In this document: positions 1-27,513 of the stretch, one piece after another | How the letters are laid out: every line of letters starts with the position of its first letter | Numbering within the stretch: position 1 is the first letter of the stretch | From: Escherichia coli | GTDB taxonomy: Bacteria; Pseudomonadota; Gammaproteobacteria; Enterobacterales; Enterobacteriaceae | Reading direction: 5' to 3' (one strand) | Length of the DNA: 27,513 bases | Assembly: GCF_003334385.1 (NCBI RefSeq) | Contig: NZ_QOWN01000057.1 | Program-made: the position numbers and the translations under genes | Notes under the pieces: generated by a model | The model's input: the letters and a program-made list of their open reading frames with translations, nothing else | Told to the model about the DNA's origin: nothing | Databases searched by the model: none

Positions 1-326
1 AGCGACATAATCTGAATCTGAGACAACATCTGGCAAGGCTGGGACGGAAGTTACTGTCGTTCTCAAAATCGGTGGAGCTGCATGACAAGGTCATCGGGCA
101 TTATCTGAACATAAAACACTATCAGTAAGTTGGAGTCATTACCCGACAGCGAGGTGTTTAGTGTGCCATGTCAGGCGAGAAATTCTATTGGATGAATCAA
201 GTCCAACTTACTCATTGTCAATTTCATGGTTGATTATTCGAAACGTGATGCTATTTCCAACATCAACGCTATAATTGCAGAATAATTGTAGATACATTTT
301 TGTATATACAATTAGGGATGGCAATT

Positions 327-614
327 ATGCCAATGGAGTTTGAATGGGATGAAAACAAGGCCAAAAGTAATCGGGTGAAACATGGCATCCGCTTTGAAGA
401 TGCGGTGTTATTGTTTGATGATCCACAACATTTGTCACAGCAAGAACGCATAGAAAACGGTGAGTATCGCTGGCAGACAATCGGCCTGGTTTACGGCATC
501 GTGGTTATTCTGGTTGCGCATACCATCCGTTTCGAAAGCGGAAATGAAATTATTCGAATCATCAGTGCACGAAAAGCAGATCGTAAAGAGAGGAATCGCT
601 ATGAGCATGGTTAA
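327..614 (+). CDS. BrnT-like (DUF497) type II toxin, putative ribonuclease
   Basis: Translation MPMEFEWDENKAKSNRVKHGIRFEDA...RIISARKADRKERNRYEHG fits the DUF497/BrnT pattern (FEWD..KA..N..KHG..FE.A, RIISAR.A). AGGGA sits 8 nt before the ATG at 327; the ORF track starts the frame at 300, so the start is ambiguous among ATGs at 318/327/333. Confidence 0.7.
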   Translation: MPMEFEWDENKAKSNRVKHGIRFEDAVLLFDDPQHLSQQERIENGEYRWQTIGLVYGIVVILVAHTIRFESGNEIIRIISARKADRKERNRYEHG

Positions 615-903
615 ACATAAACGAGGGACCTCCTCTACACTCGATGTGCAGCATGAGGCCGAACTGAAGGCGCTGGCGAATAAATCCGACGAAGATATTG
701 ATTACAGTGATATCCCACCTTCCAGCGATGAGCAATGGTCTAACGCCGAACGCGGTAAGTTTTATCGGCCATTGAAAACTCAGGCTTCGGTGCGTATTGA
801 TGCTGATGTGATGGAATGGTTGAAGCGACCAGGTAAAGGCTATCAAACTCGCCTGAACGCAATTTTACGTGAAGCGATGCTGCGCGATCAGAACAAAAAA
901 TAA
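601..903 (+). CDS. BrnA-like antitoxin (RHH/DUF4415-type)
   Basis: Translation MSMVKHKRG...SVRIDADVMEWLKRPGKGYQTRLNAILREAMLRDQNKK has the BrnA-type C-terminal motif. Its ATG overlaps the 3' end of the toxin gene by 14 nt (toxin-first order typical of brnTA). The track ORF starts at 460, but that upstream extension lies inside the toxin gene. Confidence 0.65.
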   Translation: MSMVKHKRGTSSTLDVQHEAELKALANKSDEDIDYSDIPPSSDEQWSNAERGKFYRPLKTQASVRIDADVMEWLKRPGKGYQTRLNAILREAMLRDQNKK

Positions 904-907
904 TTCA

Positions 908-925
908 GGCCGCCACATGGCGGCC
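908..925. terminator. GC-rich hairpin (ggccgcc-acat-ggcggcc) between convergent brnA and yjiA
   Basis: Perfect 7-bp inverted repeat directly after the brnA stop (901-903) and after the yjiA stop (937, minus strand). Confidence 0.4.
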
Positions 926-936
926 ATCATCCAAAA

Positions 937-19117: not shown

Positions 19118-19204
19118 TGGTGCGAGGGGGGGGACTTGAACCCCCACGTCCGTAAGGACACTAACACCTGAAGCTAGCGCGTCTACCAATTCCGCCACCT
19201 TCGC
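19118..19204 (-). tRNA. tRNA-Leu (anticodon CAG), 87 nt including CCA
   Basis: The reverse complement reads GCGAAGGTGGCGGAATTGGTAGACGCGCTAGCTTCAGGTGTTAGTGTCCTTACGGACGTGGGGGTTCAAGTCCCCCCCCTCGCACCA: class II tRNA with a long variable arm and a CAG anticodon. Only one copy is present. Confidence 0.95.
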
Positions 19205-19339: not shown

Positions 19340-19495
<156 letters not shown>

Positions 19496-19504
19496 GCGGG
19501 ATAC

Positions 19505-20536
19505 TTAACCTTTTTTCGCCTGGCGGGTCATAATGGCGCGATATACCTTGAAACGCCCGGTTTGCGCAATCACTTCATGGAAGCCAAATGTCTCATCCAG
19601 CACGTCCGGATAAGGCAGGAAGGCGTTCGCTACAATTCGCAGCTCGCCGCCACTATTAAGATGACGCACCGCGCCGCGAATCAGCGTTTGCGCCGCATCC
19701 AGGCTGGTTTGCATCCCATCGTGGAACGGCGGGTTGGAGATGATCATATCAAAACGACCTTTCACCTCGGAAAAGACGTTGCTGGCAAAGACTTCACCTT
19801 CAACACCGTTGGCCGCAAGTGTTGCGCGGCTGGCTTCTACCGCTGGCGCAGAGACATCGCACAAGGTGAGACGAATTTTCGGCGAATGGCGCGCAAAGGC
19901 AACTGAAAGCACACCCGCGCCACAGCCGACATCCAGCACTTTACCTTTCGTGTGCGGGGTTAACGTCGAGAGCAGCAACTGGCTACCGACATCCAGACCG
20001 TCGCGGCTAAACACGCCAGGCAGCGTTTTGACCGTCAGGCCATCGACGCTGTATTCGCCCCAGAATTTATCGGCATCAAATACCGGCTGTTTTTCCAGAC
20101 GACCAAAATAGAGGCCACAGCGACGAGCGCTGTCGACTTTATTCAACGGCGCATAATCTGCCAGCATCTGCTCGGCGCTGCGCACGCCGCTGCGGTTCTC
20201 GCCAACGACAAAAATATCTGTCCCCACTGGCAGCAGAGAAAGTAAATTCATCAACTGGAACTGGGCTTCCGGTTTGTTCTTCGGCCAGTAGTAAATCAGC
20301 GTATCGCAATCTGCGACGTCATCCACCGTGGCGACCAGACTGAAACGGGCGTTATCCCCCATCTGGCGGCTTAATACCTGCCAGTGGTGGAATTGCTGGG
20401 TATGAGCACGGCTGGCCGCGGTATCTAAACGCGCGGGCAGGTCATCCTGTAAGTCTCCGGCAAACAGAATACGGCTTTGTTCGAAATCATCACTGTGACG
20501 CAGCAAGACTTCACTTGCCGGGGTAAATGCAGACAT
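19505..20536 (-). CDS. rsmC: 16S rRNA m2G1207 methyltransferase
   Basis: 343 aa with a SAM-binding motif [11 protein letters not shown] and an NPPFH catalytic motif. Confidence 0.9.
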
Positions 20537-21481: not shown

Positions 21482-22159
21482 ATGAAGTGGGACTGGATTT
21501 TCTTTGATGCCGATGAAACGCTGTTTACCTTTGACTCATTCACCGGCCTGCAGCGGATGTTTCTTGATTACAGCGTCACCTTTACCGCTGAAGATTTTCA
21601 GGACTATCAGGCCGTTAACAAGCCACTGTGGGTGGATTATCAAAACGGCGCGATCACTTCATTACAGCTTCAGCACGGGCGTTTTGAGAGCTGGGCCGAA
21701 CGGCTGAAAGTTGAAGCAGGCTTGCTTAACGATGCCTTTATTAATGCGATGGCGGAAATCTGCACGCCGCTGCCGGGCGCGGTTTCTCTGCTTAACGCCA
21801 TTCGTGGCAACGCCAAAATCGGCATCATCACCAACGGCTTTAGCGCCTTGCAGCAAGTGCGTCTGGAACGCACGGGCCTGCGTGATTACTTCGATTTGCT
21901 GGTGATTTCCGAAGAAGTTGGCGTTGCCAAACCGAATAAGAAAATTTTCGATTATGCGCTGGAACAGGCGGGCAATCCTGACCGTTCACGCGTGCTGATG
22001 GTTGGCGACACTGCCGAGTCCGATATTCTCGGTGGCATCAACGCCGGGCTTGCGACCTGCTGGCTGAATGCGCACCATCGCGAGCAACCAGAAGGCATCG
22101 CGCCCACCAGGACCGTTTCTTCGTTGCACGAACTGGAGCAGCTCCTGTGTAAACACTGA
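21482..22159 (+). CDS. yjjG: HAD-family pyrimidine 5'-nucleotidase YjjG
   Basis: 225 aa with the HAD motif I FFDADETL near the N-terminus. Confidence 0.9.
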
Positions 22160-22544: not shown

Positions 22545-23756
22545 ATGGCGCTGTCTGATGCGTGGTTGCGTTCAGTCGTTGGAAAGGAACGTGATAAGGT
22601 TTTGGTAAAATCCGATCGTGATGGTCTGTCTGTCAGAGTATCACCGAAAGGTCGCGTAGTGTTCCAATACCGTTATCAATGGGCAGGGAAAGGTGAGCGT
22701 CTTGATATCGGAACTTACCCGGCAACTGGATTAAAAGAGGCCAGAGAAGAAGTTATCCGTCTCCGTGGTGAACTCGAGTCAAACCGTAATCCACGATTGG
22801 TCAAGCAGGCTGAAAAACGAAAAGCTACTGAAGCCATGACGGTAGAGTCTGTGATCCGTGCCTGGTATGAAGCATATTGTGTAAAAAATAAAAAGGGTTC
22901 TGAACAGATACTCCGCTCGTTTGAGCTGCACCTGTTCTCTAAAATCGGGAATATCCCTCACGATGCAGCTACATTGCATGATTGGTTAGAAGTCCTGGAG
23001 CCTCTTAGCACTAAGACTCCAGCAATAGCAGACCGATTGCTAATTAACGCAAAGCAGGCCCATGTCTGGGCGTATAAGAGAAAGCTTATTGAAACTCGCC
23101 CGCTGTCGGACATCACGGGTAAAGATATGGATATCCGTAAAGGTCAGAAGAAACGGTTTCTGACACACGATGAAATTAAAATTCTTTATGCTGCGATCGA
23201 TGGTTCTCGAATGGTTCCCAAATACCGGGCCTTCATTAAACTATTGCTGCATTTCGGCTGTCGTAGTTCAGAGCTGATTACTGCCAGGGTGGACGATTTT
23301 GATTTCATTAATAAGGTATGGACTGTACCACCAGAACGACATAAGACAGGGGACATAACAGGCGAACCGCTAAAGCGGCCCATTATTGAACCTGTTGAAG
23401 AGCTTATAAAATATGTTATCTCTATGAACAACGGTTCCGATATGCTTTTTACTAAGGAAGGAAGCAGGGAGCCGGTTGGTCGGACATCATTGCAGTCGCT
23501 GCCTTACAATTTAATGCAGTACGCATGGCGGCGTTTAGGATATCAATTCCCTCATTGGTCTCTTCATGACTTGAGACGTACAGCTCGAACAAATTTTTCT
23601 GATCTTACTGCGCCTCATATCGCAGAAATTATGCTTGGTCATAAGCTGCCAGGGGTATGGCAAGTTTATGATAAGAGCGATTATCTAGAAGAACAGCGTA
23701 AAGCCTACCAGACATGGTGGGAGAGAGTTGAATCGATAGTTACTTGTACTAGCTAA
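22545..23756 (+). CDS. Tyrosine site-specific integrase (P4-like; N-terminal DUF4102-type arm-binding domain plus catalytic domain)
   Basis: 403 aa. N-terminus MALSDAWLRSVVGKERDKVLVKSDRDGLSVRVSPKGRVVFQYRY is typical of the P4-integrase family. The C-terminus carries catalytic-box residues HDLRRTARTN (H-x-x-R), LGHK and the nucleophile Tyr in VYDKSDY. Confidence 0.9.
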   Translation: MALSDAWLRSVVGKERDKVLVKSDRDGLSVRVSPKGRVVFQYRYQWAGKGERLDIGTYPATGLKEAREEVIRLRGELESNRNPRLVKQAEKRKATEAMTVESVIRAWYEAYCVKNKKGSEQILRSFELHLFSKIGNIPHDAATLHDWLEVLEPLSTKTPAIADRLLINAKQAHVWAYKRKLIETRPLSDITGKDMDIRKGQKKRFLTHDEIKILYAAIDGSRMVPKYRAFIKLLLHFGCRSSELITARVDDFDFINKVWTVPPERHKTGDITGEPLKRPIIEPVEELIKYVISMNNGSDMLFTKEGSREPVGRTSLQSLPYNLMQYAWRRLGYQFPHWSLHDLRRTARTNFSDLTAPHIAEIMLGHKLPGVWQVYDKSDYLEEQRKAYQTWWERVESIVTCTS

Positions 23757-24052
23757 GATTCCCGTTGACAGTTTGCGTAGCCAGAGCGCAATCAAATCTG
23801 ACGGTCTGCTTTGAGCTGAAGAGCGGATCTTATGTTCTTTTCACTGTTTCCTCAAAAGCATCTATTACTCACTTCGTTGCTCTTTGTGTCGTTTTGAAGA
23901 AAATGCCACTTAACAAAGAATTGGATTAACTAACTTTTTTAAAGGATGTACTTGCAACTTCAATCACAGAAAAAATTTCCAGTTACCCTAAAATGGTCAG
24001 CTTAAATCATTTTCAAAAAATTATTCAAATGTGTAGGGGAAGTGGGATTTTT

Positions 24053-25840
24053 ATGAGACTTGAAAAACTAATTTTAAAGAATTTTCGTGGCTATCACGGT
24101 GAACATAGTATTGACATTAATTCACTAACTGCAATCGTTGGACGTAATGATGTTGGAAAAACAACTATCCTAGATGCGCTTGGAGTGTTTTTTGACCATA
24201 AATTATGTAAATATGATGCTGCCGATAAATGTGTTGATAGTTTAGATAATGATGACGTAGCAATTGGGTGTGTTTTTTCAGGGGTTGAAATACCTATTGT
24301 CTTAGATGCTTCATCTATAACTAATCTTGAAAAAGAATACTTATTAAATAATGATAAAAAGTTAGAGATATATAAGGTTTTTACTAAAGGTAAGGGAAAT
24401 GGTAGCATTCAAGCGAAATGTATGGCTCCATCAGTAAAAAGTGCAAAGTCTTTACTCGCTAAAAAAAATGAGGAGCTTAAAAGAATTGCTGAATCTATTG
24501 GTGTGGATGATGCAGACAAAAGAAGTAATGTTAGTTTAAGGCAAGAGATTTACAAGAAAATTGGAGATTTGAAACTTCATGAAAGCTTTGTTAAATTAAA
24601 TGCTGAGGAGGGTAAAGTAATTTGTGATAAAATATACGATAAACTCCCTCATTTTGCACTGTTTCGCGCAGATAGACCTAGCACTGATGAAGAATCAGAA
24701 GTACAAGACCCTATGAAGTCAGCTGTACAAACAGCATTGCAAAAAATTGATGTTCAACTTGAGTCCATTAAAGATAATGTAAAAAAACACGCAATTTCCG
24801 TAGCGAATAACACAATTAATCATTTGCATGATATATCTCCTAATCTTGCATCTGGATTAGTTCCAAAGTTTAAGGTGGAACCTAAGTGGGAAAATATTTT
24901 TAAACTGACACTAGAAGATGATAGAGGTATCGCTATAAATAAACGTGGCAGTGGCGTTAGACGTCTTGTCCTGATTAGCTTTTTTAAAGCAGAAGCAGAA
25001 AGATTGCAAAGTGAATTCCCAGATAAAGGTGTTATCTATGCTATCGAAGAACCTGAAACATCTCAACACCCCTCTAATCAGAGACTCCTTATTGAGGCTT
25101 TTCAAGAGTTAGCAAGTTCAGATAAATGCCAAGTATTAATCACCACTCACGTACCAGCACTCGTAGAAAAGATACCGACTGAGTCTTTACGCCATATAAC
25201 CAGAACTCTTGACAATGGTTTAGAAGTAAAAAATGGTGATGATGATGTTCTTAAGAATATAGCAAATGATCTAGGTGTATACCCCGACAGTAGGGCATCT
25301 GTTCTTGTGTGCGTTGAAGGTCCTAATGATATAAACTTTTTAAAAAATATCGGTAAGGTTTATCTTGATTATGGTGTTAAAAATGTTCCAGACATGATGA
25401 ATGATCCGCGTATAGTTTTTATTCCAATGGGGGGGCATACTCTCAAAGATTGGGTTAATAACAATTATTTGAAAGTTCTAAATAAACCAGAGGTTCATAT
25501 TTATGACAGAGATGTTGCAGTTCCTCCCCAGTATGAAAATGAATGTAATTCAGTAAATGCAAGGAAGGATGGCTCTATAGCATTTATGACCCAAAAAAGA
25601 GAAATGGAGAATTATTTACACCCTGATGCCATTCAGGCTGTTTTCGGTATTACTCTAACCATAGACGATATGACAGATGTTCCTTCCGTTGTATCTAAAT
25701 TAACAGCATTCAATGAAAGCAAAGCGAAGAAGAAACTTAATAAGTTCGCTACAGGTAAAATGAGCTATCAAATGCTCACTGCAAGCGATACAGAAAGAGA
25801 GACGTTATCATGGTTTAATGCTATATATGACAGATTATAA
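24053..25840 (+). CDS. OLD-family ATP-dependent endonuclease-like protein (N-terminal ABC/AAA ATPase plus C-terminal Toprim); candidate single-gene anti-phage / abortive-infection factor
   Basis: Walker A VGRNDVGKTT near the N-terminus; Walker B / D-loop VIYAIEEPETSQHPS; H-loop LITTHVP; C-terminal Toprim-like motifs VLVCVEGPND (conserved Glu) and VHIYDRD (DxD). Start placed at MRLEKLILKNFRGY, with GGGGAAG about 10 nt upstream, rather than the track start 23993. About 595 aa, close to the size I recall for P2 Old. The gene is markedly AT-rich. No UvrD-like helicase partner is adjacent. Confidence 0.8.
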   Translation: MRLEKLILKNFRGYHGEHSIDINSLTAIVGRNDVGKTTILDALGVFFDHKLCKYDAADKCVDSLDNDDVAIGCVFSGVEIPIVLDASSITNLEKEYLLNNDKKLEIYKVFTKGKGNGSIQAKCMAPSVKSAKSLLAKKNEELKRIAESIGVDDADKRSNVSLRQEIYKKIGDLKLHESFVKLNAEEGKVICDKIYDKLPHFALFRADRPSTDEESEVQDPMKSAVQTALQKIDVQLESIKDNVKKHAISVANNTINHLHDISPNLASGLVPKFKVEPKWENIFKLTLEDDRGIAINKRGSGVRRLVLISFFKAEAERLQSEFPDKGVIYAIEEPETSQHPSNQRLLIEAFQELASSDKCQVLITTHVPALVEKIPTESLRHITRTLDNGLEVKNGDDDVLKNIANDLGVYPDSRASVLVCVEGPNDINFLKNIGKVYLDYGVKNVPDMMNDPRIVFIPMGGHTLKDWVNNNYLKVLNKPEVHIYDRDVAVPPQYENECNSVNARKDGSIAFMTQKREMENYLHPDAIQAVFGITLTIDDMTDVPSVVSKLTAFNESKAKKKLNKFATGKMSYQMLTASDTERETLSWFNAIYDRL

Positions 25841-25980
25841 CGTTTGATTGTACGCAATTAGGGATCTTTCTTGATATTTAAAAGGCTGCTCCATACATCG
25901 CCTCACAATAGTGGTGTCGTTATTCGGTTACAAATACTACTACTAGGGGGACGGTGAGTGCTAAGGTAACTGTCCTTATT

Positions 25981-26057
25981 GGCACAGAGCGGATTTCAGA
26001 TTAGGTGTGACTCTGTGCCATAGATGGGTATTAGCTCACATTTGATCTAATACCCAT
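25981..26057. terminator. Two stem-loops in the convergent intergenic region between the OLD-like gene and the alpA-like gene
   Basis: ggcacagag-N21-ctctgtgcc (25981-26019) and atgggtattag-N12-ctaatacccat (26024-26057); the second abuts the stop codon of the alpA-like gene. Confidence 0.35.
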
Positions 26058-26251
26058 TACTCAATAACTCCCGCAAACCTGTATATCTTGCGCGATGCCC
26101 ATTTATTTGGGCAGGATTTTATATCAGGATTTGGAAAGTCAGGCCTGTATTTCTGGCCTGTTTTCCTGTTTACGCTGTTCCAGCGAAGAACAGTCGATAC
26201 TGAAACGCCACAGAAGTCGGCGACTTGTTTAGTTGTCATTAAGTTGTTCAT
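26057..26251 (-). CDS. Small HTH DNA-binding protein, AlpA/excisionase-like
   Basis: 64 aa; TTKQVADFCGVSVSTVLRW resembles the AlpA/Xis-type helix-turn-helix. Its start overlaps the stop of the upstream DUF551 gene (TAATG). Confidence 0.55.
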   Translation of the reverse strand: MNNLMTTKQVADFCGVSVSTVLRWNSVNRKTGQKYRPDFPNPDIKSCPNKWASRKIYRFAGVIE

Positions 26252-26898
26252 TACTTCACCTCCTGCGGCGGCTCTGGTAGCGGTATCCAGTGGGTTACTT
26301 TCGATGCCGGTTCTTCTCCATCGTCAGTAACTGCCCACCATTTGTTTCTCGAACAATCGTAATACCCTTCGAAGGTATCGCACTCAGTCCAGCCGTAAGA
26401 CTTACCCCAACACCAAACATACTGTTTATCGTTCGGCATTCGCTCACTACAGCTTATCCAACCATCCGGAGTTACCGGAGAGTTGCCATCCAGCGCGTTC
26501 AACTTGTAAGCCTGGCTTACAGGTTCGGCACTATGAAGTATGGCTGCGCGGCAGGCGTTCCAGCCTGTAGCGTATGCAGCCGCTTTGCTGCTGTCTTCAA
26601 CTGGCGCATCCTGCCAATACATTTCTTCCGGCACTATCGGCGCTGGAGGGGCGGCAAATAGATATCCGCCAAAGTCAGGAAGCTCTCCAATGGCCTGTAC
26701 GAACTTTTGTTTGCCTACGTCAACTCCTAATGGGTAATGAGCTATAATCTTTGCCACCGGCTCTGCTTCCAGCGATACCAGTGCAATTCGTGCCAGTTCT
26801 TCCGCTTCTTCTGCTGGCAGTACAACGTTGCTACCCGGTCCGTATGTTTCGCGCCACTGCTTGATTGTCAGCAGTCGCCCTTTGGTAATAGTGATCAT
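26251..26898 (-). CDS. DUF551 domain protein (phage-associated)
   Basis: 215 aa; the C-terminal region WISCSERMPNDKQYVWCWG...WWAVTDDGEEPASKVTHWIPLPEPP matches the DUF551 signature (...VTHWMPLPEPP) as I recall it. Start overlaps the stop of the upstream gene (ATGA). Confidence 0.65.
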   Translation of the reverse strand: MITITKGRLLTIKQWRETYGPGSNVVLPAEEAEELARIALVSLEAEPVAKIIAHYPLGVDVGKQKFVQAIGELPDFGGYLFAAPPAPIVPEEMYWQDAPVEDSSKAAAYATGWNACRAAILHSAEPVSQAYKLNALDGNSPVTPDGWISCSERMPNDKQYVWCWGKSYGWTECDTFEGYYDCSRNKWWAVTDDGEEPASKVTHWIPLPEPPQEVK

Positions 26899-27410
26899 GC
26901 CGCGTATCCTTCTTTCTTATTAACAATCACACCGTCATATATTTCATTAAGGTGCCCTCTCAACTCCATGCGCCTTAATGCAGATAACATGTAATCGCAT
27001 TCAACCTGCTTATTCCCAGTAAATGGCTTATCGTCAGGATTACCCCAACAGCAATTACCCCTGGGCCATCCATGTACTTTCCGTACTCTTCCGTTAACAA
27101 CGTGAAGTAATCCCCAGCCGGGAGGTAAATCCTCAACTGAAATAATTTCCGGCTCACTAATAAAGAATCGCCAGTCGCCCATGCCAAGTGAGGGATTTTT
27201 ACGGAAACGCTTTTTTCTATCTGCCAACAAGTCAGCACGAGAACACTTCGCCTCTATCAGGCATGATGCTGAATTTCTGAATCCCATAGCATCTGGCTGT
27301 TCTCCGGTACTGGTTACAGCAACAAAGCGGTCATGAAAGCAAACCTTGAACCCGTTGCGCTTAAGGAACTTGTACGCAATCTGACAGAGTTCGTGGTGTG
27401 TTAACGCCAT
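26895..27410 (-). CDS. PD-(D/E)xK-type nuclease, MmcB-like
   Basis: Start set at MALTHHELCQIAYKFLKRNGF... with AAGGAG 7 nt upstream (the track ORF starts 11 codons earlier at 27443). Contains a PD...EAK arrangement (EQPDAMGF...CLIEAKCSRAD) consistent with a PD-(D/E)xK active site. Confidence 0.55.
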   Translation of the reverse strand: MALTHHELCQIAYKFLKRNGFKVCFHDRFVAVTSTGEQPDAMGFRNSASCLIEAKCSRADLLADRKKRFRKNPSLGMGDWRFFISEPEIISVEDLPPGWGLLHVVNGRVRKVHGWPRGNCCWGNPDDKPFTGNKQVECDYMLSALRRMELRGHLNEIYDGVIVNKKEGYAA

Positions 27411-27411
27411 A

Positions 27412-27513
27412 TCACTCTCCTTTGATGCGAATGCCTGTTGCAATGCTGTTTATGATGCTGTCAGTGCATGGGGTAGAAAGCTGGGCATCTCCAGCAATTT
27501 TCATGACCTCAAC
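27412..27513 (-). CDS. 3' end of an upstream ORF (partial, continues beyond the window), product unknown
   Basis: On the minus strand the frame ...VEVMKIAGDAQLSTPCTDSIINSIATGIRIKGE-stop is open from the window edge; its TGA lies 1 nt before the ATG of the MmcB-like gene, and the MmcB RBS sits within its last codons. Confidence 0.3.
   Translation of the reverse strand, partial: VEVMKIAGDAQLSTPCTDSIINSIATGIRIKGE

Follow-up and report, generated by a model that had tools for sequence, protein, structure and literature searches.

The BrnT/BrnA toxin-antitoxin pair of Brucella abortus (reportedly Heaton et al. 2012; PDB 3U97) is said to be the founding member of the protein families PF04365 and PF14384. 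In Brucella, the antitoxin has a DNA-binding domain at its C-terminal end, and reviews describe repression by the toxin-antitoxin complex of its own promoter (PMC11980606, PMC5086665); the RNase activity of the toxin requires residues D6, E7, K9, R41 and E78 (reviewed in PMC5086665). The Escherichia coli pair analysed here shares with the Brucella system both Pfam families, the toxin-first bicistronic order and the five RNase residues, but its toxin carries insertions in loop regions and its genomic setting, the edge of a restriction island, is a different one. A second point of comparison is PDB 7VD7, with chains that the depositors named 'toxin' and 'antitoxin', which is effectively an ortholog of the E. 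coli pair with a solved complex; it differs in having Ala in place of the E. coli Glu9, and the crystallised antitoxin is a 44-residue toxin-binding fragment only. Further relatives, from Acinetobacter baumannii and from small enterobacterial plasmids, have toxins 58-72% identical to that of E. coli, the same overlap architecture, the palindrome TTGTATATACAA upstream and a near-identical BrnA C-terminus; these plasmid copies lie on replicons of 5-9 kb and larger, whereas E. coli has a single chromosomal copy fixed at one locus.

The E. coli pair is itself already known: it belongs to the BrnT/BrnA family as an ordinary member, RefSeq gives it the family names, and it appears in a 2025 EcoSal Plus review of the immigration control region (PMC12707154). 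That review gives yjiA and yjiN as the anchors of the region and lists three toxin-antitoxin systems within it, namely brnAT, symE-symR and rpn. Its brnAT is the same gene pair at the same locus, between yjiN and yjiA; the review gives no detail on an operator, on allele frequencies or on an IS1-bounded deletion. A search of the accessible literature found no experimental study of the E. coli pair.

Here we examine the locus as it occurs at the left end of a 27,513-nucleotide stretch of E. coli DNA (the window; contig NZ_QOWN01000057.1). An earlier note on the same DNA had recognised a BrnT/BrnA-like pair beside yjiA. By combining profile searches, structural comparison, promoter and palindrome scans, and a survey of complete E. 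coli genomes, we arrive, with a probability of roughly 0.88, at the following reading: positions 144-936 are a complete chromosomal BrnT/BrnA type II operon at the yjiA edge, encoding a predicted RNase toxin and probably autorepressed, and positions 1-143, the end of an IS1 element, mark a deletion.

Results

The brnT and brnA genes and their products

The toxin gene brnT occupies positions 327-614 of the plus strand (95 aa; Shine-Dalgarno AGGGA at 313-317) and the antitoxin gene brnA positions 601-903 of the same strand (100 aa; Shine-Dalgarno GAGAGGA at 588-594). The toxin thus comes first and the genes overlap by 14 nt, in agreement with the overlapping, toxin-first pair of 95 and 100 aa that the earlier note had described, all elements of which lie where it had placed them. 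Toxin-first order with an overlap of 14-20 nt is conserved in five other loci, and the 14-nt overlap makes translational coupling probable. PGAP gives the same two gene calls in a 99.9%-identical genome. Other small or antisense open reading frames in 144-936 (for example 562-846 on the minus strand, 94 aa, and 161-274, 37 aa) were considered and rejected, as they are unsupported and lie inside the better-supported genes or the control region.

The family assignment, for which the note had proposed DUF497 (BrnT) and BrnA profiles as the check, is borne out by both searches: the brnT product matches Pfam BrnT_toxin (PF04365) with E=5.3e-24 over model positions 1-77 of 77, and the brnA product matches BrnA_antitoxin (PF14384) with E=3.1e-17 over positions 1-68 of 68 (residues 37-93), in accord with the PGAP names. 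Identical proteins are listed in RefSeq as 'MULTISPECIES: BrnT family toxin [Enterobacteriaceae]' and 'BrnA antitoxin family protein', and exact copies of both sequences were found on at least 1000 contigs. Families of the PHROGs collection match BrnT and BrnA, BrnT matching the family 'ribonuclease toxin of AT system' with E=6e-23. A search of NCBIfam returned no match for either protein, despite PGAP naming both.

BrnT is about 84% identical to chain A of 7VD7 over 94 residues (counted on the printed alignment; E=4e-52), and aligns with Brucella abortus BrnT (3u97_A) at 36% identity (phmmer E=1.6e-4). Through its similarity to these two structures it is assigned, indirectly, a RelE-like fold, in which short helices support a four-stranded antiparallel sheet. 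In the Brucella alignment, D8, E9, K11, R48 and E88 of the E. coli protein correspond to D6, E7, K9, R41 and E78; Glu9 varies among close relatives, being Ala in the B2 allele as well as in 7VD7.

Residues 14-57 of BrnA are 73% identical to the 44-residue antitoxin fragment crystallised as chain B of 7VD7, which puts the region that binds the toxin in the N-terminal half of the protein. Residues 56-94, at the C-terminal end, are nearly invariant across genera, and it is the N-terminal part that diverges. BrnA is read as binding the toxin with its N-terminal part and DNA with its C-terminal part, the latter probably of ribbon-helix-helix type. An AF2 monomer model (pLDDT 62, low confidence) has an extended segment at 61-67 and helices at 68-74 and 81-99 with no beta strand called; this order of segments is compatible with strand-helix-helix, and so with a ribbon-helix-helix domain, though it is no proof of one.

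The control region and a candidate operator

The earlier note had taken the first 300 bp of the window as devoid of a credible open reading frame and as a possible junction or remnant. The second half of this description holds for positions 1-143, which are the right end of an IS1-family element; positions 144-326 are instead the intact and conserved upstream control region of brnTA (plus strand). This non-coding, AT-rich segment (36% GC, against 52-60% in yjiA) has a mean column identity of 96% with B2-type strains that lack the IS1, and in other strains its equivalent is the divergent intergenic region between brnT and an annotated restriction endonuclease gene.

A perfect -10 hexamer, TATAAT, can be read on the plus strand at 270-275 and is a candidate promoter element of brnTA, although a good -35 element was not found. 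In keeping with this, a sigma-70 consensus scan that required both hexamers called no promoter on the plus strand, and its three minus-strand hits do not exceed the 2.0 expected from shuffled sequence. Downstream of the hexamer lies a perfect 12-bp palindrome, TTGTATATACAA, at 300-311 (it reads the same on both strands), together with a degenerate copy, TTGTAGATACAT, at 286-297, whose centre is 14 bp from that of the palindrome; an inverted repeat with 14-nt arms (283-296 and 301-314) encloses both sites. Between the TATAAT box and the palindrome, a repeat search found a tandem 11-nt duplication on the plus strand, ATAATTGCAGA followed by ATAATTGTAGA, at 271-292. This duplication is polymorphic, being present in the window and in B2 strains and reduced to a single copy in the genome L006, and its copy number alters the spacing between promoter and operator.

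We regard the palindrome as a putative BrnA operator. When the whole window was scanned for it with up to two mismatches, only these two sites were found, against 0.98 expected by chance, a number too small to be significant; what supports the operator is its position and its conservation across genera. Plasmids of Klebsiella aerogenes, Xenorhabdus doucetiae and Acinetobacter baumannii have the perfect palindrome as well, 22-27 nt before the brnT codon that aligns with M3 (the third residue here), and a 10/12 version precedes the brnT of a Salmonella plasmid, even though the BrnT proteins that these plasmids encode are only 58-72% identical to that of E. coli. An operator at this place fits the autoregulation of Brucella BrnTA described in reviews (PMC11980606, PMC5086665). 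With adjacent, overlapping and co-directional genes preceded by a palindrome, the locus has the layout of a type II toxin-antitoxin operon, the operator being putative. An Rfam scan of positions 1-1000 gave only a drz-agam-1 hit of 21.5 bits, below the gathering score of 37 (E=0.13), which we take as chance.

The hairpin between brnA and yjiA

A GC-rich hairpin, GGCCGCC-ACAT-GGCGGCC, occupies positions 908-925, in the space common to the convergent genes brnA and yjiA (a GTPase gene at 937-1893 on the minus strand, part of the conserved framework that bounds the variable island). Its predicted free energy is -16.5 kcal/mol, with z=-5.8 against shuffled sequences. The stop codon of yjiA (937) lies 11 nt past the hairpin, so that the pair does abut the 3' end of yjiA, as had been noted. 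The hairpin had also been called a terminator following the toxin-antitoxin genes, and on this point the structure stands but the assignment shifts: a terminator scan called it on the minus strand only, where it would serve yjiA and is followed by UGAAUUAUUUUUU, a T tract encoded by the last codons of brnA (AAC AAA AAA TAA). Downstream of the hairpin on the plus (brnTA) strand the sequence reads AUCAUCCAAAAUUAC, with no U tract. As a canonical intrinsic terminator the hairpin therefore belongs to yjiA, and it appears to serve that gene no less than brnTA. In K-12 the place of the hairpin is taken by another element, a REP-like one, and homology between K-12 and the window starts exactly at the yjiA stop codon, which indicates that the hairpin belongs to, or came with, the brnTA cassette.

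The IS1 end and the deletion junction

The IS1 end at 1-143 (plus strand) runs off the left edge of the window. Positions 3-128 encode the last 41 codons and the stop of insB, recognised from the translation as the InsB C-terminus, and the terminal inverted repeat of the element ends with GTCATTACC at position 143. PGAP annotates an 'IS1 family transposase' pseudogene here in genomes 99.9% identical over 1-936, one record specifying IS1F-like, and the full 768-bp IS1 is seen at 19376-20143 in the matching genome L001 (NZ_CP025903.1). Over 1-936 the window differs from the best-matching genomes at position 51 alone, which is T in the window and C in L001; the substitution turns Ser into Leu in what remains of the InsB C-terminus, and in those genomes the IS1 is already a pseudogene.

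Since the window begins within the IS1, its left side was read from matching genomes, in which there are two contexts. In the first (L012), the IS1 lies between the native upstream region of mdtM and the upstream region of brnT; in the second (L001), it lies between a 270-bp patch from the distant yghW-yghX locus and the upstream region of brnT. Both lack the whole stretch between and including rpn and the restriction endonuclease gene, which amounts to about 11.3 kb when B2 strains are taken for comparison. No target-site duplication of about 9 bp was found for either left context (tggaatccg or ttaaaattt on the left, cgacagcga on the right), and its absence points to a deletion junction, consistent with an IS1-associated deletion or rearrangement and not with a simple insertion. 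The junction (143/144) falls 13 bp from the start codon of the restriction endonuclease gene of other strains and leaves the brnTA control region intact.

A 120-nt probe over the IS1-brnT junction was found in 1113 of 5426 complete E. coli genomes, and the left junction between the yghX piece and the IS1 in 664. The simplest reading, we infer, would be that a single old IS1-associated deletion came first and that the left side was rearranged later.

The patch itself (98% identical; in the region 19029-19376 of L001, and in the same 664 genomes) comprises the 5' end of yghW, the yghW-yghX intergenic region and the 3' end of yghX, the last annotated by PGAP as a dienelactone hydrolase fragment. 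A 7-nt microhomology (CGGCATG) links the patch to mdtM at about codon 8, and the yghW promoter thereby comes to precede a YghW'-'MdtM hybrid 5' end.

The island in other strains

brnTA adjoins yjiA directly, and the content of the island beside it differs among K-12, B2-type strains, strain GF43 and the lineage with the IS1 junction. K-12 has no brnTA; there mrr and hsdR adjoin yjiA, in line with the restriction cluster that the earlier note gave for this strain. In B2-type strains, brnTA lies between yjiA and a divergent gene annotated only as 'restriction endonuclease', beyond which follow type I hsdM, hsdS and hsdR, then symE, yjiS, yjiR, an rpn gene and mdtM. In GF43, a variable cassette (Fic, a GmrSD-like DUF262/DUF1524 protein and type I restriction genes) ends inside brnT.

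That this strain has different content at the locus was correctly noted so far as K-12 is concerned, but brnTA is no substitute for hsd and mrr: B2-type strains have it beside restriction genes, so it coexists with them. Looking leftward for what replaces those genes, as the note had suggested, shows through the matching genomes that the restriction genes are indeed gone and that nothing replaces them; in the IS1-junction lineage a deletion reaching to an IS1 has removed them. The module itself, brnTA, resides at the island's yjiA edge.

This setting invites the view that brnTA is mainly an abortive-infection or phage-defence component, in which phage infection would free BrnT to kill or arrest the infected cell. 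The pair sits within a recognised defence island, where its neighbours in other strains include restriction genes of types I and IV, and is grouped with the defence content of the island in PMC12707154; other toxins of the RelE/ParE superfamily have defence roles (PMC11980606), and phage-encoded BrnTA relatives exist among the PHROGs. We nevertheless consider this role unlikely. PADLOC has no model matching BrnT or BrnA, which leaves a defence function without support from that source, a literature search found no published phage phenotype for BrnTA, and the persistence of brnTA after deletion of all the neighbouring restriction genes speaks against a functional tie to them.

Distribution of brnTA and loss of the toxin

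The brnTA region is present in 2113 of the 5426 complete E. coli genomes (about 39%), always as a single copy and in all but one case on the chromosome. E. albertii, E. fergusonii and the cryptic Escherichia clades have it too, with an identity of at least 90%. E. coli 'plasmids' in PLSDB (AP026530.1 / NZ_CP128951.1, 655 kb; CP054241.1, 834 kb) carry a brnT 95-100% identical to that of the window; these 655-834 kb replicons, with the chromosomal brnT locus, look like chromosome fragments or chromids and not like ordinary plasmids.

Counting as full length any gene with 80% coverage or more, so that point mutations and frameshifts go uncounted, brnA is full length in 2111 of these complete genomes and brnT in 1781. 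About 330 genomes (roughly 16% of carriers) have thus kept brnA with a brnT that is truncated or internally deleted, as in L005 (8001-8352), where a cassette boundary falls inside brnT, and L006 (8173-8591), which has an internal brnT deletion; the reverse, brnT without a full brnA, occurs in at most one or two genomes. Such an asymmetry is expected of a live toxin, for which loss of the antitoxin first would be lethal. With the toxin lost in about 16% of carriers and the module absent from 61% of E. coli, brnTA is dispensable.

The same observations bear on the view that brnTA brings the cell no benefit, being either a selfish addiction cassette or a remnant in slow decay, kept only because losing brnA before brnT is lethal. 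Among its close relatives are pairs on plasmids of just 5-9 kb, on which toxin-antitoxin systems have a stabilising role, its GC content is low against the flanking genes, and both the one-sided loss of brnT in some 330 genomes and the absence of the module from most of the species fit this view. Against it, both genes are full length in 1781 genomes, the module is at least 90% identical in the other Escherichia lineages, and the operator and the RNase residues are intact; full-length occurrence across so much of Escherichia suggests long retention. We regard this view as possible, at somewhat less than even odds.

The orphan brnA genes, common to hundreds of E. coli genomes, raise one more possibility, namely an anti-addiction role of chromosomal brnA, alone or together with brnT, in which it would neutralise or cross-repress plasmid brnTA and so permit plasmid loss without killing. 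The DNA-binding end of BrnA and the palindrome are near identical to those of the Klebsiella, Xenorhabdus, Salmonella and Acinetobacter plasmid copies, but the toxin-binding N-terminal half of BrnA is divergent, making cross-neutralisation doubtful, and we hold the proposal to be improbable. If it were true, the island edge would be a plasmid-control element as well as a restriction locus.

Other features of the window

Two further regions of the window deserve a brief description. A single tRNA-Leu(CAG) gene lies at 19118-19204, where the otherwise collinear L001 has three tandem tRNA-Leu genes; the difference may reflect recombinational collapse of the tandem array or collapse during assembly. 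Positions 22545-27443 look like an integrated element, probably a defence islet, that reaches the window edge. It has a tyrosine integrase (22545-23756, 403 aa), followed by a 615-aa ATPase (23993-25840) that matches the PADLOC AriA model with E=8e-57 and, more weakly, OLD and GajA, and by two minus-strand open reading frames with no family match (26251-26898 and 26895-27443). Upstream of this element, a 225-aa open reading frame at 21482-22159 is presumably yjjG, judged by its position in the K-12 gene order.

Discussion

Taken with the described members of the family, the locus at 144-936 suggests the following mode of action for the operon. BrnT, with all five of the Brucella RNase residues present, would be a small RNase of the RelE/ParE superfamily, and BrnA would wrap around it and block its activity. 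The BrnTA complex would bind the TTGTATATACAA operator at 300-311 and the degenerate copy at 286-297, just downstream of the TATAAT hexamer, and by this binding repress its own transcription. Were BrnA degraded or no longer made, free BrnT would be expected to cleave RNA and so bring about translation and growth arrest. For the E. coli pair, toxicity, neutralisation and operator binding are all read from homology.

As for the history of the locus, if the arrangement before the deletion was that of comparable strains, the IS1-associated event would have taken rpn, yjiR, yjiS, symE, the type I hsd genes and the restriction endonuclease gene.

Beyond its correct annotation the brnTA pair matters little, and what the present analysis adds is modest: its residency at the yjiA edge, the IS1-bounded loss of restriction genes, and a candidate BrnA operator shared across genera. 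The conservation of this candidate operator could guide a simple binding experiment. For the species at large, the restriction genes of the island have been lost by IS1-bounded deletion in about one fifth of complete E. coli genomes.
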